This document shows, one piece after another, positions 5,404-52,199 of a stretch of DNA of 64,000 nt (the first letter of the stretch is position 1; each line of letters opens with the position of its first letter). The notes under the pieces were generated by a model. The model ran no database searches and was not told the DNA's origin. It saw only the letters and a list, made by a program, of their open reading frames with translations. The position numbers were made by a program, and so were the translations under genes. Origin of the DNA: an uncultured virus (IMG/VR IMGVR_UViG_3300035150_000049) (Duplodnaviria; Heunggongvirae; Uroviricota; Caudoviricetes). The stretch lies in IMG/VR virus record IMGVR_UViG_3300035150_000049; one strand, 5' to 3'.

Positions 5404-5840
5404 AACGCGACCATCTTTCTAAACTGAATAACATAATTTCGAGAATAACGCCCGACCCAATCCTGCTCACTGAGCTTGGAGAGCCATATCACGGCATTGT
5501 AATTAGCGAATGAATCATCATTGTTATCGGTTGTCGTTCGCACTGTCACCAATCCGCTATATCCGCCGCTACAATAAGTGTCACGTAGATATTTTTCTTG
5601 CGCTTTTGTGACCACCGCCAATTGCCAAGACGTGGCAGGGTAGCCACTAAATTGTTTCTCGCCGCTCGGTTTTACGCGCTGCAAGCCGGGATCATAAAAT
5701 CCATAACTCCTCACAGTACCAAAGGTGCGCGGGTAATCTTCCGCGTCGGCTTGTGTTCCCTCTAATGTCACCAACCCGGCAGCGTTATTGTTCCCCGCGG
5801 CGATTTGATAATTTGCTTGGCGTACCGGCGTCTCTGGCAT
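5400..5840 (-). CDS. putative distal tail protein
   Basis: 146 aa immediately after tape measure; assigned by position only. Confidence 0.45.
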   Translation of the reverse strand: MPETPVRQANYQIAAGNNNAAGLVTLEGTQADAEDYPRTFGTVRSYGFYDPGLQRVKPSGEKQFSGYPATSWQLAVVTKAQEKYLRDTYCSGGYSGLVTVRTTTDNNDDSFANYNAVIWLSKLSEQDWVGRYSRNYVIQFRKMVAL

Positions 5841-11863: not shown

Positions 11864-12125
11864 ACATTATCCCCGAATCGTGCGCCTTTCTAAGTGCCTC
11901 ACCCGAAATCGCCAGCACCTGTACCAGCGGGCGAAAGGGCGAAAACCATAGAATAAACAAAATGGCAGCAACCCACACCGATGTACAGAATACGCAATCA
12001 AACAAGCCGCCGGGATTACACATGGCGCGTAGTTGCTCAAAGATGCGATATGGCCCTGCTTCGCTCGTGAGCATGTAGGAGAGCCGCCACGTAGCAATAC
12101 TTAGAATATCAAAATCGTTATTCAT
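11850..12125 (-). CDS. small membrane protein, DUF1360-like
   Basis: ATWRLSYML...GP...GLFDCVFCTSVWVA. Confidence 0.6.
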   Translation of the reverse strand: MNNDFDILSIATWRLSYMLTSEAGPYRIFEQLRAMCNPGGLFDCVFCTSVWVAAILFILWFSPFRPLVQVLAISGEALRKAHDSGIMYAGS

Positions 12126-13822
12126 TTGAAGACCTCCGGGAAAATATCAATCCACAGCTTTTTTACCTGGGCGTCAAATGAATAATTCTTTACGACAATC
12201 TCCTGTGCCGCTTTGGCAATAGCAGTGCGCCGGCTTTCGCGCCGGCCATCGAGCCAATAAGTAAGCTTATCTTTCAAGTCGTCCAAATTATCCCACCCGA
12301 TATAGTGTTCGCCATCAATCAGACCTGGATTATAGCGCTCGAATTCCGGCGTGATTTGCTGAAGCAGCAGCGCGCCGCCTACCGCTAAGACCTGAAAAAA
12401 GCGATTGCTTACAAATGCGCTTGTGCCAGGGAAAGTATCTCCAACGGCAAGCCGCGCGTTTTTGTAAAGCGCGACTCCCGGCGCAAAGTCGTAGAGATTT
12501 TGTCCGTCCGCCTGCTGCCAGCCGCGTCCGTAAATACCTACCGAGGCGTTAGTGTTGCGTAGCGTCTCGTAAAGCGCCTGGCGTGGCGCGTTGTAGTTGT
12601 TGCCAAGAAACACAATGTCATAAGCTGGCATATTAGGTAAATCGCCCACCGGCTCTTCATAGGATACCTGCCAATAACGGGTTTCGGTTTCGTATTGCTT
12701 TAGCCCGGCGGCGTCCACGATCAACTGCAAATCGATCTCTCGCATAAGCGCTTGATAGGATGGAGCAATCTGTCGCGTCGCGTCGCCGTGCCAGTTCACC
12801 ACACGCAAGCCCTCATAAGCCGCCTTACACGCCTTGATAGTCCCGGCGTTGATCGTTCGCGCATCGTGCAACTGCGTAAAAAGTAGGTCGGGTTGCCAGT
12901 GTCGAATAATCTGCGGCAAGCGCGCTGAAATGTTTTTGGTATTCAGGTAGTCGATTTCCCATACCAACCCAACACGCCGAAACGCCTCGCGCAACCCGCG
13001 TTTATTCGCGTGCTGTACCGGATGCCCAGGCTCATAAATCGGCAAATACAGAATACGCAATTGCCGGGACTGCGGCGACTTGATACGCGGCGCGGCAGGG
13101 AATTTTGCACAATTAGGGAACCGCCGGCGAAATAACTTAGAATCGGTGTGTTGGCCGCCGTAACTCTGATTGTCTACCAGCCTCAGCACATCATTGGCGA
13201 CATGATCTTCACAACGCGCAGTGGGGAGTTCATCGATCGTGTATCCCTCTTCGACAATACGCGCCGATAAAAAATTATCACCGCCGTATTTTCGTGCTTT
13301 GCTCATAATTTCATCATTTGCACCCCACCACCCCACGGCGTCGCCGAGCCATTTTCGGAACATACCGACCTGCGCATAAGGCATTGTCCATTCTTCGCCA
13401 TCTGCCGTTTCAATGCACTGCATTTGGGTCTTATAGTGGTCTCTGGGATAGTTTTCGTAAATCGGACGATTATCCTGGAACGCCACAGCGCCACAGCGCG
13501 CGTTATTTTCAAGGTGTACAAATGCCGCCGTAATCGAGCCGGGATGAAAAGCGATATCATCATTTGCCATCACGACATAATCGCCACGCGCCCGGAACGC
13601 GCCGCGCGTAAAAGCTGAAATCGCGCCAACCAAATTACCGTCTTCGATCAATACGGTATCAGCCTGTTCGCGCAACCATTCAAGACTGCCGTCGTCTGAC
13701 CCGCCATCCACGATTACAAATTCGTGGTCAAGGCCACGCGGAATACACGCCCGCGCAGACTGCATCATGTTTTTTAGATATTCAATCCGGTTGTAGGTGC
13801 CGGACACAATCGAAATATTCAT
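12122..13822 (-). CDS. two-domain glycosyltransferase (GT2 + CgeB/Glyco_trans_1_2-like)
   Basis: ISIVSGTYNR, VIVDGGSDDGS and MANDDI (GT-A fold); C-terminal DIVFLG...IYGRGW...SNRFFQ...GEHY (GT-B, CgeB-like). Confidence 0.9.
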   Translation of the reverse strand: MNISIVSGTYNRIEYLKNMMQSARACIPRGLDHEFVIVDGGSDDGSLEWLREQADTVLIEDGNLVGAISAFTRGAFRARGDYVVMANDDIAFHPGSITAAFVHLENNARCGAVAFQDNRPIYENYPRDHYKTQMQCIETADGEEWTMPYAQVGMFRKWLGDAVGWWGANDEIMSKARKYGGDNFLSARIVEEGYTIDELPTARCEDHVANDVLRLVDNQSYGGQHTDSKLFRRRFPNCAKFPAAPRIKSPQSRQLRILYLPIYEPGHPVQHANKRGLREAFRRVGLVWEIDYLNTKNISARLPQIIRHWQPDLLFTQLHDARTINAGTIKACKAAYEGLRVVNWHGDATRQIAPSYQALMREIDLQLIVDAAGLKQYETETRYWQVSYEEPVGDLPNMPAYDIVFLGNNYNAPRQALYETLRNTNASVGIYGRGWQQADGQNLYDFAPGVALYKNARLAVGDTFPGTSAFVSNRFFQVLAVGGALLLQQITPEFERYNPGLIDGEHYIGWDNLDDLKDKLTYWLDGRRESRRTAIAKAAQEIVVKNYSFDAQVKKLWIDIFPEVFK

Positions 13823-25116: not shown

Positions 25117-25306
25117 CCTCTACGCCTAGAAGGTCTACGGCGCGCTGCCAAATGCAATTTTCTTTATGATTCTGCCTCTTTACTTTGTAATCATACTTGC
25201 AGTAGCAATATTTACAATTGCATAGCCCGTAATTATCTTCAATAAATGGATTGAATTGTATCCATTCCCTAAGTAACTCAAGCACCGCGTCGTCACTCTT
25301 CGGCAT
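25094..25306 (-). CDS. small CxxC-H-C protein
   Basis: NPF...CKYC...HKENCIWQRA. Confidence 0.6.
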   Translation of the reverse strand: MPKSDDAVLELLREWIQFNPFIEDNYGLCNCKYCYCKYDYKVKRQNHKENCIWQRAVDLLGVEVDYAYLV

Positions 25307-26348
25307 TCTTCACCTCCCCCTCTACCCACTGGTACAGCCGCGCAATTCCATCTTTAAGCTGGATTTGCGGCTCCCAGTTCAGTAATTCTTTCGCATAACC
25401 GATATCGGCGTTACGCGCCTGTACTCCAACCGGACCATCAACATGATTAATCGATAGTTCAACACCAGCGGCGCGGGCGACCGCGTAGGCCAATTCGTCA
25501 ACCGTGACCATGTGGGTATCGCCGAGGTTGAGAGGCTGCGATAGCATAACTTGGTATAATTTTGCGCGAGATTCAATACTTATACCGGTAATATGTACGC
25601 TCAATCGAGCTGCTGCTTGGTATACATCCCTCTCGTTCATCTCCATCAGCCGCCATATCCCATTAATCAAATCATCCACATGAATATAACTCCGCAGCGC
25701 TGCCCCATCGCCCCATACGTCAATCTCCGCCGTGCCGTCATTGCGCGCTAACTTACTCGCAGCAACCTTCCGGCATAACGCCGCCGGCGCTTTCTCGCGC
25801 CCGCCCCGCCATGTGCCATATTCGCCATAGCAGTTATGGAACCGCGCGGCGCGGGTATCCAAACCATAATCGCGCGCATAAACTGCGCATAGGCGTTCGG
25901 TGTAGAGTTTTTCCCAGCCGTATTCGTTATGAGGGTTGGCGGGGTAGGCGTCATTCTCTGCGAGGTCGGCGTGTTCGGCGTCCCGGTTGGGATAGACGCA
26001 CGCCGATGAACTGAAAAAATATCGTTCAACGCCGGACTGTCGCGCCGCTTCCAGCATGTTCAAATTAATGCGCGTATTGATACGCATCATGTCGGCGTCG
26101 TGTTCGGCGAGGTAGCCCATGCCGCCCATGTCGGCGGCAAGCTGAAACACCCAATCGATACCACGGCAGGCATTGACCGCCGCACCGTAGTGCGTCAAAT
26201 CAGCTAGCTCGAACTCATCACAACCTTGTTTTTCGCGGTGTTCGTGATGTTTGATGTCAACGCCGCGCACCCAATACCCTTTATCTTTCAAGAACTCCAC
26301 TAGGTGGCCGCCGATAAAACCGCCGGCCCCCGCAACTAAGATTTTCAT
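25293..26348 (-). CDS. NAD-dependent sugar epimerase, GDP-mannose 3',5'-epimerase-like
   Basis: GAGGFIG, LAADMGGMG, SSSACVYP, YGWEK, GGREKAPAALCRK; start taken at MKILVAG. Confidence 0.85.
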   Translation of the reverse strand: MKILVAGAGGFIGGHLVEFLKDKGYWVRGVDIKHHEHREKQGCDEFELADLTHYGAAVNACRGIDWVFQLAADMGGMGYLAEHDADMMRINTRINLNMLEAARQSGVERYFFSSSACVYPNRDAEHADLAENDAYPANPHNEYGWEKLYTERLCAVYARDYGLDTRAARFHNCYGEYGTWRGGREKAPAALCRKVAASKLARNDGTAEIDVWGDGAALRSYIHVDDLINGIWRLMEMNERDVYQAAARLSVHITGISIESRAKLYQVMLSQPLNLGDTHMVTVDELAYAVARAAGVELSINHVDGPVGVQARNADIGYAKELLNWEPQIQLKDGIARLYQWVEGEVKNAEE

Positions 26349-26520
26349 TTGGCCTCTCACTGCGCCGCTAGGCGCGAAAACGTATCTATCAACGTAGCTA
26401 AACCGGCGGCAATTACCGCAACGGTCATTAACACGCACCCCGCCTTATCTAAGCACGGTGTTTCGGCTTCCTCATAATGAATCGTGCCGCCGCCTTCATC
26501 TTCTACCCATTGTGATTCAC

Positions 26521-27159
26521 TCATTTTGACCTCTCGAATATAAAGAATTGCCTCAGTAAGCCCCCCCCACGTTGATATTTGCCATCATAAGCCGGTAGCC
26601 ACTGATAAGCGGGATGATCGGGCTGCGAGATATCTGGATGTGCTTCGTAATCATACATATGTAGCATATGCTTAATATAATTCGGTGACGGCCTACATCC
26701 AAATCCGTTCATTGATTGATCTGCCCCGTTTGTTTCATTCACCGGGAAACGTTCAAGACAAGACGAATCGGTGACAACTGTGCTCAACAAAACTAACGGT
26801 GTTTGACTTGCGCGCAAAACACGACCTAATCCGGCGATTGGAAGCATCAAATGATAGAGCACCCCGAACATTAGCACAACATCAAATTCAGGCGTCAAAT
26901 GTGGATATTCTTTGTCAATATCACATACCCGGATATCCAGTCCCGGATACCTGCGCCGCGCCTCTTCGACATTTGTTTTCCTGCCCTCTAACGCCACGAC
27001 TTCGCAGCCCCAATCGAGCAGATATTTCGACAAATGCCCTACGCCTGCGCCTACGTCAAGCACGCGCATGCCGGGTTGAATGATGCCCAGGCTCTTGACG
27101 TGACTCATGCGCGCTTCGTTGAGCGCGAGCGCCTCCGGGCGGTCAAAGGGTAAAGTCAT
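26521..27159 (-). CDS. class I SAM-dependent methyltransferase
   Basis: VLDVGAGVG, FDVVLMFGVLYHL. Confidence 0.85.
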   Translation of the reverse strand: MTLPFDRPEALALNEARMSHVKSLGIIQPGMRVLDVGAGVGHLSKYLLDWGCEVVALEGRKTNVEEARRRYPGLDIRVCDIDKEYPHLTPEFDVVLMFGVLYHLMLPIAGLGRVLRASQTPLVLLSTVVTDSSCLERFPVNETNGADQSMNGFGCRPSPNYIKHMLHMYDYEAHPDISQPDHPAYQWLPAYDGKYQRGGGLLRQFFIFERSK

Positions 27160-28481
27160 TTTCCTACCCCCAGTGGAACATATCGCACGCCGGAGGGGAG
27201 GTCGTTAGGGTCAAGCGAGCGCCAACAATCTATGATCGTTTGTCCTGGTTGATAGGGGAGGTGCTGGAAATGCGTGTAGGGCAACGCGACAACAATCACG
27301 TCGGCCTGCCTCACGAGCGCGTCGAAGTCCGACCAACCGTCAAGCGTTGGGTCAATGGTCATGGCTTCAACACGGGCGAGCGCCAAGTAGTCAGCGAGCG
27401 CCAGTCCGAAACTTTCTTCGGTAATGGGCGTCCCGACTTTATAGGCTGCACCCAGGACAAGAACAGAGCCATCCTCCGGCAGCGCTTCCCGCGCCAACTC
27501 CCCGACGAATTCGACATGCACTTGATTAATCTTCACGCTGATGTACGGTATCCCCGCGTACCCATTCCAGAGGTCGGCTTTGTCGAGCGCCTTCATCATC
27601 GCGCGTCCGTCACGCGGAAAACACGGCCCGCCGTACCCGGTCGCACCCTTAAAATACTTCGGTGAAACACGGCTGTCTAATCCCATCGCGCCGGTTACGT
27701 CATCGACATGCGCGTCCGGTGTGCGGTGGCAAAGTACCGCGAGGGTATTGGCGAACGAGATTTTAAGCGTGATGTAGGTATTAAGCGCGAGTTTAGTTAC
27801 TTCGGCAGAGGAGATAGACATCAAGGCGTATTGCGTCTCTTCGCCGGGAAAGCTAGGATTCAACTCTTCGTATATCATCTTGAGCCGTTCGGCATCGAGT
27901 TCGTTTCCGCCAATCAGCACGAAGTCGGGATCAAGAAAGTCATCTACCACGCTTCCCTGAGCAATAAACGCCGGCGAATAACAGAAACCCAGCATATCCC
28001 CAAGCTTGCGCCCGGCTGCCAATTCAAGCGCGGGAATAATCTTAGTCTCGCAGTCGCTCGGCATGACGGTAGACGAAAGCACCACGAGGTGATAGGCGTC
28101 TTTGTCTTTGATAGCTTCTCCGGTGGAGAGCATCGCTTCAATGCAATAGTTGGTATCAAAACTACCATCAGAAAGCGATGGCGTGGGTACGATGACAAAG
28201 GTTGCGCTAGTGTCGGTAATTTTGGCGGCGTTGTCCATTGTGTGGAGTTCAAGATTGCCGCGCGCATTTGCTTCACTCAATAATTCGCTTACCTGCGGTT
28301 CGGGGTAGGTAGATTGGAGTGGGGCAGTGAATGCATCAGGGGATTTATCAAAGGCATACACCCAAAAAGGCCAAGCGTATCGAACCGGGTCTTCAATAGG
28401 AATTATGATCTCATGACGTGACACAAATGCAGCGGCTAACGCGCTGCCTAGTTTGCCGAACCCGACAATGGAGATTTTCAT
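27156..28481 (-). CDS. UDP-glucose/GDP-mannose dehydrogenase family
   Basis: GFGKLG, VPTPS, SSTVMP, KISFAN, GYGGPCFPRD. Confidence 0.92.
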   Translation of the reverse strand: MKISIVGFGKLGSALAAAFVSRHEIIIPIEDPVRYAWPFWVYAFDKSPDAFTAPLQSTYPEPQVSELLSEANARGNLELHTMDNAAKITDTSATFVIVPTPSLSDGSFDTNYCIEAMLSTGEAIKDKDAYHLVVLSSTVMPSDCETKIIPALELAAGRKLGDMLGFCYSPAFIAQGSVVDDFLDPDFVLIGGNELDAERLKMIYEELNPSFPGEETQYALMSISSAEVTKLALNTYITLKISFANTLAVLCHRTPDAHVDDVTGAMGLDSRVSPKYFKGATGYGGPCFPRDGRAMMKALDKADLWNGYAGIPYISVKINQVHVEFVGELAREALPEDGSVLVLGAAYKVGTPITEESFGLALADYLALARVEAMTIDPTLDGWSDFDALVRQADVIVVALPYTHFQHLPYQPGQTIIDCWRSLDPNDLPSGVRYVPLGVGK

Positions 28482-34420: not shown

Positions 34421-36958
34421 TCACGTACCCTCAAACATTGTCCCTTCCCAACCCCCTCCCGCGCCGGCCTTCTTACCTCTTCGCCACGCTTGCCACGCAT
34501 TGAAGGCCGTCCGCTCCTTTGCAAGTTCGACGTACTCCGGGCTGATCTCGGTTGTGATCCCGCGCCGGCCCAAGGCGTTAGCCACAAGCGCCGTAACACC
34601 CGTGCCGCCGAAGATGTCTAAGACGGTTGCGGGGACGGGCGTATGATCCGGACAGTTGCATGTGGGACTAAAGTCTATAGATGGTTTATCGACTCGCACC
34701 TTTCGCTGTTTGTAAGGCGCATTAACAAAACAGTCCTTTTCTCCTGCTTGCTGCTTAAAACCTGCCTGATTACCTGTCGTTATATACTCTGGATTTTGTA
34801 CAAATGTTTCGCGGTTCACAGGAAGGTCAAGCGCCGCCGACAATTTACTCCATGATGTCTCGCTTGGTATGTGGCCGCCGCTTTCCCAATCCCAAATGTT
34901 GTTGCTCCCTACGCCAACTAAATCAGCTAATTCAGCAATGTTGAAGCCACGCTCTTCTCGAATAGACTTTAGCACATTTCCCAAAACACTATGAGGTAAT
35001 GTGCCGACTCTCTGCCACTGCGCCCCGCACACACTACACACCCCACGCTCACTCGTCGCGGCCTTAATGAACGGTTCCACCAACGCCGGCGGAAAAGTGG
35101 CATAGTGTGCTCCCGGATACGCGCGTGGGTTGACTTGCAGCGCCATCGGGAGATTGTTATCATCATGCGGCAGGTCGCTATCCCGCAGCGCTTCCAGGCG
35201 GTCGATCTCGTATCGATGGCAGTGAATGGCAGCATCTATTGACTCGTTCCAGGCGTCGGTCGTGCGACGGTTGCGTCCGGCGGGGTTATAGTTGCGTCCA
35301 TGCTTTCTTACGTAGTCACCAAAACCGTCTTTTTTTCTGCTGGCAGAAGCCGTAAAAGTATTCCCACTACCCTTCTTGTGCCCTTCGCTTGCACCCGTGC
35401 TCCTCCACGGTTCCTTATGCCCCACTCGCACCGCGTCCGCGTCGTAAAAATACCGCGCTGACTTCGTAAGCATGATAATATACTCGTGGGCTGTAGAGGG
35501 GCGGTCTTGAACGCTTTCGGGCATGGCGTTGCTATTGTGTGTTAACACACCAGATGCAAGCGCAAACAAGTGCGGCTCATCCTCTACGGCAATATCCCAA
35601 AACTTGCGTGCCCTGCTCGTTTCAATCTTTACGATCTCGGTATCCGGCTTCCGTTGAAACGCGGTCGGCCTGTTGTTTTTAACCGGAGGGTTAAAGCGAA
35701 TTTGCCCGCGCCAAACTTTAACGCGCTCGCCATTATATGGAGCCGTCCCACGCTTTAGTCTAAATGATATACCAAGCCTTGCACAAAGCGTTCTTAGATC
35801 GTTTGCAAGATTGTCATTTTTAGTAAAACAAAGCCGCCATCGATCGTTCTTTTTATCATAGTGTCCATCTCCCTCAAGATAGCCCATAAGTAAGTTTTGT
35901 AAAAATTGGTCACTGCGCGCCCAGCACTTTGCAGATAGGTGTTTGTCCCTTGCAACCGAGCCGTTTATGTAGGTATCAACAATACCCCTCACGACCTTGC
36001 TATATATACTATATGTAACTCCGCCCTCGCTTGTTTGATGAGACGCACAGTTCGCATCATAGCAGTTTGCGAAACGGCTCAGCTTTTCAAAAAAGTCTAC
36101 CTTTTTGATGTTACAGGCAAGGGAGATTGAGTCTTTATATTTGTTACCCTCAGCAAGGTAAAGTCCCAAAATCCAAGCAAAATCATCGGGTATATGAGAA
36201 GGCGACGAAGTGTCTTTTGGTTCGGGCAGTCGGACAAAATCAACAACATCACCGAGGCGTAAATCCTTCGCCTCTACCAGTCCGCGTTGTGTCGGCCACT
36301 GATGCGTTGGGGTTGATCCGATTCTTTCGCCGCTTCGTAGGTGTATTTCTATATTATTTTTGCCGCGCGGTGTTTCTTGCCAACCTAAAACTTGCGTCCA
36401 TTTTTCCCCATTCCATAGTTTTACTGTAGATGGATCAAGGCGAACCAAGTCCTTAATCGTAGTTGGCATTTCCCCCTTTTGTGTCTTAGCATAAACGCGC
36501 GTTCCGCCAGATAAGCATTTCAACCACGGGAAAAACGAGCGTACCCACCAGCCGTCCTGTTGCAGGGCTATGGCGAGGCGCTGGGGGATAAGTAGTAAGT
36601 TTTTGGCCGGCAGGCTGCGCTTGTCGCTGCCACTTAGGTGTGGATCGCCACCATCAAGTTTCGACCCGCCGCCGCGGCCATTGCCGGGATTGCCGGCATA
36701 ACTATCCCCCATATTCACGAACGCTACCCCATCGCCCCTCAATACCCGCTTCACTTCCCGAAACACGCCCACCATATGTTCGATGAACAATTCCGGTGTC
36801 GGCTCTAAGCCAAGCTGCCCGCGCCATGCCCCGTAGGGCACATCAGGGGCGTTGTAGCGACGTAAAGCGTAGTAAGGTGGTGAGGTAACCACGCAATGCA
36901 CCGAATCTGCCTTAAGCGGCAAGCGCCCGGCGTTGGCCTGTAAAATATTGAGGTTCAT
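34421..36958 (-). CDS. N4-C/N6-A DNA methyltransferase containing an intein and an XRE-HTH insertion
   Basis: VVTSPPYY, NMGDSY, HYATFP, VLDIFGGTGVT. Confidence 0.9.
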   Translation of the reverse strand: MNLNILQANAGRLPLKADSVHCVVTSPPYYALRRYNAPDVPYGAWRGQLGLEPTPELFIEHMVGVFREVKRVLRGDGVAFVNMGDSYAGNPGNGRGGGSKLDGGDPHLSGSDKRSLPAKNLLLIPQRLAIALQQDGWWVRSFFPWLKCLSGGTRVYAKTQKGEMPTTIKDLVRLDPSTVKLWNGEKWTQVLGWQETPRGKNNIEIHLRSGERIGSTPTHQWPTQRGLVEAKDLRLGDVVDFVRLPEPKDTSSPSHIPDDFAWILGLYLAEGNKYKDSISLACNIKKVDFFEKLSRFANCYDANCASHQTSEGGVTYSIYSKVVRGIVDTYINGSVARDKHLSAKCWARSDQFLQNLLMGYLEGDGHYDKKNDRWRLCFTKNDNLANDLRTLCARLGISFRLKRGTAPYNGERVKVWRGQIRFNPPVKNNRPTAFQRKPDTEIVKIETSRARKFWDIAVEDEPHLFALASGVLTHNSNAMPESVQDRPSTAHEYIIMLTKSARYFYDADAVRVGHKEPWRSTGASEGHKKGSGNTFTASASRKKDGFGDYVRKHGRNYNPAGRNRRTTDAWNESIDAAIHCHRYEIDRLEALRDSDLPHDDNNLPMALQVNPRAYPGAHYATFPPALVEPFIKAATSERGVCSVCGAQWQRVGTLPHSVLGNVLKSIREERGFNIAELADLVGVGSNNIWDWESGGHIPSETSWSKLSAALDLPVNRETFVQNPEYITTGNQAGFKQQAGEKDCFVNAPYKQRKVRVDKPSIDFSPTCNCPDHTPVPATVLDIFGGTGVTALVANALGRRGITTEISPEYVELAKERTAFNAWQAWRRGKKAGAGGGWEGTMFEGT
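35534..36517 (-). mobile_element. intein with LAGLIDADG homing endonuclease (328 aa)
   Basis: Junctions WLK|CLSGGT and GVLTHN|S; block B TPTHQW; LGLYLAEG and LMGYLEGDG. Confidence 0.92.
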
Positions 36959-47956: not shown

Positions 47957-47985
47957 ATTATAATGGTTTGTGGAACAAAAGTCAA
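47957..47985 (-). promoter_or_regulatory. leftward sigma70 promoter
   Basis: TTGACT-17-TATAAT. Confidence 0.8.
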
Positions 47986-48014: not shown

Positions 48015-48043
48015 TTGACAAAATAAAAATAGTGTGTTATCAT
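48015..48043 (+). promoter_or_regulatory. rightward sigma70 promoter
   Basis: TTGACA-17-TATCAT with extended TG. Confidence 0.8.
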
Positions 48044-48085
48044 ATAGACAGTTAAGTAAACAACGCAAGCAAACAGGAGAGAGCA

Positions 48086-48280
48086 ATGAACAACAAAGCT
48101 TACACCCAAGTACAAACCGGAACACGCGAAAGTTGGAAGCAATTCGGCAACGGTACAGCAATCCCCCAACGACGACGTGAAGTTGTAATCGACATGGAAA
48201 AAGTTCAGCAATTACGCAACGAAGCAAACGAACGATGGATCGAAATGCACGGCGAAATGCAGAACCCGATGCCCTGGTAG
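48086..48280 (+). CDS. small early protein
   Basis: AGGAG RBS; 64 aa; its stop codon overlaps hammerhead stem II. Confidence 0.65.
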   Translation: MNNKAYTQVQTGTRESWKQFGNGTAIPQRRREVVIDMEKVQQLRNEANERWIEMHGEMQNPMPW

Positions 48281-48334
48281 CGAAACGCCCACACGGGCGT
48301 CTGCGGGAACTAGCCGCCCCGCACTGATGAGCTA
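48274..48334 (+). ncRNA. type II hammerhead ribozyme
   Basis: UAGC GAAA CGCCC ACAC GGGCG UC^ UGCGGG AACUAGCCGC CCCGCA CUGAUGA GCUA: complete core, three paired stems, GUC cleavage triplet ending at 48301. Confidence 0.92.
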
Positions 48335-48481
48335 GGCCGAGTACCTTAAAAATCAAATAACCGACAGCCCGCCGCGCAAATCGGCGTACTCGAAGCTGAG
48401 GGGCGACAATCGGTAGATGACAAAACGCGACTGACCGCACAGTCGATTGTGACGATAATGAAGCATACAGGAGATAAGATC

Positions 48482-48739: not shown

Positions 48740-48945
48740 TCGAAACGCCCGGCCTAAGCCGGGCGCATGACCCGTAAGCTCACCGCATCCACGCGGCGCG
48801 GGTTGGGTAACGCAGAGTGTGAGCGACACATCACCCGGCGCGGCGTTCCGGCTAAGGCTAGGACGTTCGGGCGGAAGGGATGGCGAGCCTGTCGGTTGAC
48901 GGCGAGGGGACCTGGGTGGGTGTAACCCCAGGCGGGTGATGAGAC
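48739..48945 (+). ncRNA. unclassified structured RNA with hammerhead-like ends
   Basis: GUC GAAA CGCCCGGC CUAA GCCGGGCG ... GUGAUGA GAC with several internal helices. Confidence 0.5.
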
Positions 48946-51674: not shown

Positions 51675-51746
51675 GCCGGCGTAGCTCAAGAGGTAGAGCA
51701 ACTGGCTTCCAACCAGAAAACGCGGGTTCGAGTCCCGCCGCCGGCT
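51675..51746 (+). tRNA. tRNA-Gly(TCC), no encoded CCA
   Basis: Acceptor GCCGGCG/CGCCGGC, D arm GCTC/GAGC, anticodon loop CT-TCC-AA, T arm GCGGG TTCGAGT CCCGC, discriminator U. Confidence 0.9.
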
Positions 51747-52052
51747 TTTGGTCTTTAGAGTAACGCACAGGAGGCGCAATGCTCACAATTGACCGGCTTT
51801 CTATCGGTGTGGTAGCCGAGAGGAAAGTTTGTACATCAAAAGAAATCACACCGGCGCAGTGTGTAAATCCGTTAAAGGACCGTATATGTTTGCTGTCGCG
51901 TTCGTGTCGCGCCGCTACCACTGACGGCGCGATGGCAAAAAAATCGGCATGGCGATAAGCCGAGTTATATCATCTTCGCCCGGCGTGAAAGCGCCGGGCA
52001 CACTATCTGAAAAATCCGATAAATTGCATGTAAGTGACAAAGCTAATCTACC

Positions 52053-52117
52053 TGGCTGACGGGGTACGTCGATGGGACGCAGGAATGCGCAAGCGGGTTC
52101 GACTCCCGCCCCAGCCA
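52053..52117 (+). ncRNA. tRNA-like element (T arm plus acceptor-like stem, no normal anticodon loop)
   Basis: TGGCTG...CAGCCA outer stem; GCGGG TTCGACT CCCGC; CGCA GGAA TGCG hairpin. Confidence 0.55.
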
Positions 52118-52199
52118 CTCCCCGCCGTTGTTCTTTTTAACCGTGGGGGTTTGCTAAGACGCGGCGGGATTTTTTGAAATGAAAATAGGAGAAAAGATA

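Follow-up and report, generated by a model that had tools for sequence, protein, structure and literature searches.

A type II hammerhead ribozyme, conserved unnamed RNAs and a candidate HDV-like ribozyme between small genes of an uncultured tailed phage

Type II hammerhead ribozymes (Rfam RF02276) form a well-known class of self-cleaving RNAs. Clustered hammerheads of prophages were reported to cleave long transcripts in vitro, and one set of them also in vivo in E. coli, and a role in transcript processing, the same as the one we favour below, was proposed for them (PMC3088659). The purpose of such ribozymes is described as undefined in a review (PMC6765202). The surroundings of known ribozymes have also been searched for new ones, and many candidates from there failed to cleave when tested (PMC6765202, PMC10085705). 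As for twister-sister, its internal loop L1 is a conserved 5 x 6 loop (G5 C6 A7 A8 G9 opposite G59 C60 U61 C62 A63 U64) in which the change G5A nearly abolishes cleavage (PMC5660989), and the twister-sister-like ribozymes keep a 5 x 6 loop as well (PMC11620745).

In this study we analysed a stretch of 64,000 nucleotides from an uncultured virus of the Caudoviricetes (IMG/VR record IMGVR_UViG_3300035150_000049), called the window in what follows, in which a hammerhead ribozyme lies directly behind a small gene. Taken alone, this hammerhead is one more example of a class with published phage context. The less ordinary part, as far as sequence comparison tells, is what follows it, namely two conserved folded RNAs without a match among the catalogued families and, one gene later, a second and different candidate for self-cutting. 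Three short unnamed RNAs (elements 2, 3 and 5) lie in surroundings of the type that yielded twister-sister, pistol and hatchet (PMC6765202). Even so, a new ribozyme has a modest prior probability, because many candidates of that origin showed no cleavage in tests, and these RNAs, which are represented by two or three genomes, would raise the interest only a little.

The window is phage DNA, since it encodes a terminase, DnaB, a primase and methylases. Both the coding strand and the GC skew switch at about 48000, where two divergent sigma70-type promoters are found (Table 1). The rightward arm beyond this point consists of small uncharacterised genes and is presumably early. Concerning the original prediction that the hammerhead comes right after the first early gene of a strong transcript, gene 1 is indeed the first gene behind a strong sigma70-type promoter, while the word early rests on the presumption just given. 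In viral contigs no relatives of gene 2 were found. The phage dCTP deaminase is closest to genes of Chloroflexota/Anaerolineae (55-57% identity), and the host group is likely Anaerolineae, a weak hint from one gene at that identity. RNase J is present in 4 of 4 host-group genomes and a match to RNase E/G in 0 of 4 (three Anaerolineae and one Chloroflexia, completeness not established).

Several other features of the window deserve record. A DNA methylase gene at 34421-36958 (-) is split by an intein with a LAGLIDADG domain. The left arm carries genes for a glycosyltransferase, an NAD-dependent epimerase and a UDP-sugar dehydrogenase (12122-13822 and 25293-28481, -), suggesting glycosylation of virion or DNA. 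The region 51675-52170 (+) begins with the sole tRNA of the window, tRNA-Gly(TCC) at 51675-51746, and continues with about 400 nt that are weakly coding and highly conserved in the related phage L203, and that may hold additional non-coding RNAs. At 52052-52118 (+) there is a unit like the tRNA-like domain of tmRNA, with acceptor-like ends and a T-arm, the coding part being absent; Rfam gives a tmRNA fragment at 52093-52109 (16.6 bits), ARAGORN makes no call, and the unit is near-identical in L203 (~5754-5820).

Table 1. Coordinates of the features discussed, with positions counted from the first base of the window
Feature	Position	Strand	Remarks
Divergent promoter	47957..47985	-	11/12
Sigma70-type promoter	48015..48043	+	extended -10, 11/12; putative start site ~48050
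Gene 1, 64 aa	48086..48280	+	UAG 48278-80; no Pfam or PHROG family
Type II hammerhead ribozyme	48278..48340	+	Rfam RF02276 and descriptor; kept in L001 and L203
Hammerhead stems	II 48278-81/48331-34; III 48285-90/48295-300; I 48302-07/48318-23	+
Hammerhead core	48282-84 and 48324-30	+	G12-A14 and C3-A9; A15.1-U16.1 = 48285/48300; C17 = 48301
Predicted cleavage site	48301..48302	+	after C17 of GUC, from hammerhead consensus (PMC3088659) and descriptor
Pseudoknot	loop I 48311-15 with 3' tail 48335-39	+	window: 3 G-C, A.C mismatch, U-G; 5 bp in L001; 6 bp in L203
Element 2, unnamed three-way-junction RNA	48360..48414	+	twister-sister-like layout
Element 2 parts	P1 48360-64/48410-14; P2 48367-70/48401-04; T-loop-type hairpin 48371-85; hairpin 48389-400		2x5 internal loop between P1 and P2
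Element 3 remnant	48428..48452	+	closing stem and tail of second unnamed RNA
Gene 2, 85 aa	48482..48739	+	no family; unrelated genes at same place in both relatives
Copy of hammerhead 5' half (GAAA and hairpin)	48741..48765	+	right after gene 2 stop 48737-39
Minimal P4-less HDV-like ribozyme candidate	48769..48824	+	predicted cut 48768^48769
Element 5, unnamed multi-branch RNA	48830..48940	+	upstream of gene 3; common to L203 only
Gene 3, 76 aa	48970..49200	+	kept in both relatives, 91% and 55%

The Infernal scan with Rfam hammerhead models that the original prediction had proposed gives a match to Hammerhead_II (RF02276) at 48278-48341 with 39.4 bits (E = 1.6e-4), against a gathering cut-off of 37 bits, and across the window one tRNA is the only other match at gathering level. 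A type II descriptor finds one site in the window, in two registers, and none in all 100 of 100 dinucleotide-shuffled windows. Judged by the core criteria for type II taken from PMC3088659, every position is present (C3 U4 G5 A6 N7 G8 A9, G12 A13 A14, A15.1-U16.1 and H17); the loops close stems I and III, stem II is open and the core-adjacent pairs are intact. What had been said of a complete CUGAUGA/GAAA core, of perfect stems I (6 bp) and III (5 bp plus A15.1-U16.1), of a 4-bp stem II of UAGC with GCUA, and of the UAG of gene 1 forming part of stem II, where it makes up the first three bases of the 5' strand, is borne out, and the proposed GUC cut at 48301 agrees with the site predicted from the class consensus, 21 nt from the stop codon. 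The proposed span of 48274 to 48334 was right in position and too short at its 3' end, which lies at about 48340 since the pseudoknot draws on the 3' tail. Regarding stability, a minimal 58-mer folds into the hammerhead (z -1.93), and an 81-mer with flanks does not exceed its shuffles in stability (z -0.19). On these grounds of sequence, the element is a genuine type II hammerhead in intact form, predicted to cleave itself.

Two related phages from IMG/VR were compared, L001 and L203 (the handles L192, L202 and G001/G051 all denote the record of L203), and the hammerhead core is invariant in all three. The gene 1 homologue of L001 is 89% identical, the codon changes being 11 synonymous and 7 non-synonymous, and the L001 hammerhead differs from that of the window at 6 of 64 positions and scores 35.9 bits, below the cut-off; two of the differences fall in stems I and III, where they result in G-U pairs. 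L203 carries a hammerhead of 41.0 bits behind a first gene unrelated to gene 1, 7 of 19 residues agreeing in the best alignment. The stop codon of that gene is a TAA whose end directly precedes stem II; this stem has 3 bp in L203, with A.G in place of the fourth pair, and CUGGU is missing. The 38-nt promoter-leader 48043-48080 is identical in L203 despite the unrelated first gene. Partial second copies of this leader occur elsewhere in G050 and G051 and none in the window. Divergence of gene 1 from L001 is uneven, with 2 of 96 bases differing in the second half (48185-48280) and 20 of 99 in the first half, which might reflect either a recent recombination tract or a constraint at the RNA level.

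For a wider comparison, a pattern scan of viral contigs gave at least 136 loci and, with L001, at least 158 candidates, of which at least 151 are unique by core sequence, kin sequences being retained. Among named phages, the hammerhead core gave weak matches only. One viral contig of 3.8 kb (L058) has at least 11 type II hammerheads, most of them directly behind a small gene. The next start follows the cut by about 180 nt in the window and by a median of 56 nt in the survey (n = 131 of the 151 listed); the distance is long here because further structured RNAs intervene.

The original prediction paired upstream CUGGU (48274-78) with ACUAG of loop I. In a gapped alignment of the three phages 13 of 15 cells of this pairing are paired, with no compensatory change and with both failures in L203, and U48278 is also assigned to stem II. 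By contrast, loop I pairs with the 3' tail in all three phages, three G-C pairs being invariant and one pair being U-G or U-A, while the varying position is A-U in L001, G-C in L203 (a compensatory A-U/G-C change) and A.C in the window; this covariation comes from three sequences and is not significant alone, 334 of 500 shuffles being equally high. The duplex with the tail has -5.3 kcal/mol in the window, where it is weakest, and -8.2 and -12.7 kcal/mol in the relatives, and in every one of the three it is better than the upstream pairing (-4.0 kcal/mol in the window). The survey points the same way: among the matches listed, 117 of 151 phage hammerheads can form three or more Watson-Crick pairs between loop I and the tail, against a mean of 90.5 and a maximum of 100 with shuffled partners, whereas such pairing with the leader is possible in 66 of 151 against a shuffle mean of 65.9, that is, at chance. 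Nested folding of 155-221-nt contexts, by a model without pseudoknots, gives a stem II probability of 0.0 in all three phages. The upstream proposal is not supported; the pseudoknot is most likely the one of loop I with the 3' tail, as in the published type II consensus (PMC3088659), and the modelled energies leave the CUGGU pairing as a possible alternative fold in the window itself.

The position of the stop codon had led to the suggestion that terminating ribosomes gate folding of the ribozyme through stem II, as a switch that couples translation of gene 1 to downstream expression. The footprint of a ribosome at the stop covers the hammerhead core region, and with UAG in the A site it would extend over the GAAA of the core and into stem III. 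In both the window and L001 the UAG is indeed part of the stem II 5' strand. In the survey, 146 of the 151 listed hammerheads have at least 150 nt upstream and were counted (5 were dropped), and 112 of these 146 have a stop that ends a frame of at least 40 codons within 15 nt upstream of GAAA, the stops bunching 4-11 nt before it; a control window 100 nt downstream, which is biased low, has 6 such stops. Tight gene packing by itself accounts for this proximity. Any overlap of the stop with stem II is seen in 21 of 146 among the matches listed, and a stop wholly inside it in 3 of 146, where the pattern, which prescribed the two bases ahead of GAAA, limits the possible offsets. L203 has its stop outside stem II and A.G as the fourth pair, the remainder of the ribozyme being intact. 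A stop near stem II is thus not special, because most listed hammerheads have one close by and that of L203 is outside the stem; from these sequences, phage type II hammerheads normally have a stop nearby, and its overlap with stem II differs even between phages as closely related as these three. For a short time a ribosome terminating here would hold the core unfolded, which would apply to most such ribozymes, yet it departs after termination and cutting is irreversible, so gating would amount at most to a delay. We therefore consider a ribosome-gated switch quite improbable, and we found no published description of stop-codon-linked gating of phage hammerheads.

Downstream of the hammerhead, element 2 forms 16 pairs in four helices with 48 of 48 cells paired in the three phages and 6 compensatory pairs, while slid controls reach at most 46% paired; these counts lean favourable, as the structure was derived from, and the alignment fitted to, the same three sequences. 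Many of its stem positions differ between the window and the relatives, and its folding z-score in the window is -0.79. Rfam has no relevant match to it, and twister-sister (RF02681) gives none at E<=10. Pattern searches for further copies gave 2 real matches of 63 in viral sequences (L001 and L203), 0 real of 20 in metagenomes and 0 in genomes. Covariance models found only the three known copies in 83 sources, and over whole records no match surpassed E 0.4, both in 48 virus records with hammerheads and in 48 of 50 additional virus records. In 151 Anaerolineae-class genomes, where scoring took in 35 candidates for each genome, the limit reached was E 0.07, and the 8 weak matches that realigned lack the element 2 motif. 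Element 3 is a branched RNA in L001 and L203, the only further copies found, with a possible loop/tail pseudoknot in our reading of the folds; its interior of 27-30 nt is deleted in the window, between short direct repeats. A literature search on phage twister-sister variants and stop-codon-linked hammerheads found no paper describing elements 2, 3 or 5, and the RAGATH/HRIMA supplementary alignments might contain them.

Behind gene 2, the copied hammerhead 5' half (10 nt) is followed by the HDV-like candidate, which has a 7-bp P1 starting with G.U, P1.1 and the C at the catalytic position of J4/2. It has two defects, as P3 consists of 2 bp plus A.G and P2 of 6 bp, a bulge and 1 bp. At the P3 position concerned, C is found in 35 of 37 unique phage matches, T in 2 of 37 and A, the base of the candidate, in none, many of the 37 being near-identical gut-phage copies. 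The Rfam scores are sub-threshold (24.5 bits where 50 are required and 21.1 where 44 are), and a descriptor of this layout, which was written after the candidate had been seen, matches 5 of 200 shuffled windows. A counterpart is absent from both L001 and L203; the place of this unit in L001 (3598-3660) is occupied by a second junction of stop and GAAA after its second gene and then a T-loop-type hairpin with internal loops. Activity of the candidate is uncertain. Other readings of this region were rejected. A theta ribozyme at 48769 fails since its cut is not at the 3' end of a tRNA, the only one in the window lying elsewhere. The long-P4 HDV reading of the Rfam alignment takes its J4/2 and P2' from element 5, which L203 has without the HDV part. 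A giant variant hammerhead at 48741-48945 would have G in place of C3 and C in place of U16.1, and neither its core-like motif nor its hairpin occurs in L203. Element 5 folds with z -4.62 in L203 and -1.26 in the window, where its 5' strand is weakened, and further copies were found in L203 only.

Taking these observations together, we think it likely that an active type II hammerhead punctuates the rightward early transcript into single-gene messages that end in a hairpin. Transcription from the rightward promoter would read gene 1, and synthesis of the 3' tail would allow stem II and the pseudoknot to form, upon which the RNA would be cut co-transcriptionally at 48301^48302, as expected of the class. 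Upstream of the cut this would leave a single-gene mRNA of about 250 nt, with its stop codon retained and with the stem III hairpin and a 2',3'-cyclic phosphate at its 3' end. The RNA downstream of the cut would begin with a 5'-OH and a structured leader of 180 nt (stem I, element 2 and the element 3 remnant) before gene 2, whose ribosome-binding site is predicted to be mostly unpaired (0.65-0.9). RNase J is a 5'-to-3' nuclease that would face this 5'-OH end. With RNase J present and RNase E/G unmatched in the host-group genomes, protection of the 5' end is a plausible job for elements 2 and 3, which most likely protect or process the 5'-OH product. If the HDV-like candidate cuts, it would end the message of gene 2 like that of gene 1, with stop, GAAA, hairpin and 2-3 nt; the predicted 3' ends after the two genes match. 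Two ribozyme classes may thus do one job, yielding separately turned-over mRNAs without terminators or host nucleases.

Parts of the cassette may be decaying, given the internal deletion of element 3 and the pair of defects in the HDV-like unit. Extended to the hammerhead, this would make it slow or decaying in the window's phage, a remnant of a cassette that works in the relatives, and the A.C mismatch of the pseudoknot, the lost interior of element 3, the A.G in P3 at a position occupied by C or T elsewhere and the weakened strand of element 5 all lean that way. The core and stems I-III are however perfect, the score exceeds both the cut-off and that of L001, and the three G-C pairs of the pseudoknot are still present, and we hold this very improbable for the hammerhead. 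A further view takes the cassette mainly as a recombination anchor for swapping of early genes, with cleavage incidental. It draws on unrelated genes flanked by the same promoter-leader and cassette in the three phages, on the 10-nt copy at the gene 2 junction and on the direct repeats around the deletion in element 3; the compensatory changes in stems, however, indicate selection on RNA structure and not on DNA identity, and the stems of element 2 are far from uniform between window and relatives, which makes the anchor view very improbable. We therefore retain punctuation of the transcript by an active hammerhead as the likely role.

A bolder reading, which we regard as rather unlikely, sees an array of ribozymes with the hammerhead first. 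Element 2 would be a self-cleaving relative of twister-sister with its T-loop docking scaffold and a different, smaller active-site loop, elements 3 (in L001 and L203) and 5 would also be candidates, and hammerhead and HDV-like units would be interchangeable makers of the same mRNA 3' end. If that is true, element 2 would be a new ribozyme variant or class. Whichever holds, the cassette offers a natural test of what self-cleaving ribozymes of bacteria and phages are for, with the same ribozyme behind different genes and with the stop in stem II or not, and the test is widened by a candidate of a second ribozyme class, whose predicted cut would give an mRNA end of the same kind.

Compared with described type II hammerheads (RF02276; Perreault et al. 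2011, PMC3088659), the one in the window shares the open stem II permutation, the full core, the short stem II, the pseudoknot of loop I with the 3' tail and the intergenic site between small phage genes; it has no class-defining difference and its cut-to-next-start spacing is longer. With the clustered prophage ribozymes (PMC3088659, PMC6765202) it shares a bracket around a single small gene, interchangeable and part of a polycistronic early region, while the bracket in the window would be of mixed class, hammerhead before gene 2 and minimal HDV-like after it, and accompanied by unnamed motifs. The HDV-like candidate has the same layout as P4-less HDV-like ribozymes of viral contigs; it shares with the minimal HDV-like/theta ribozymes (PMC10879173) the 7-bp P1 with G.U, L3, P1.1, the absence of P4 and the C in J4/2, and differs from them by the A.G in P3, the bulge in P2 and the lack of an adjoining tRNA. 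Element 2 shares with twister-sister (RF02681, PMC5660989) the succession of P1, internal loop, P2, junction, P4 with a 7-nt loop and P5. Of the 9 published SL4 positions (G29-C37), 7 of 9 agree in L001 and L203 and 6 of 9 in the copy of the window, all three copies having A in place of G35, and a C-A step on its short side could provide the extruded A. The internal loop of element 2 is however of 2x5 nucleotides, or 3x6 with the terminal A-U open, where twister-sister has 5x6, and G5, A8, C60, U61 and G35 of the published structure have no equivalents in element 2; because the loop differs and the RF02681 model gives no match, element 2 is not counted as a member of twister-sister but as an RNA that shares its layout.
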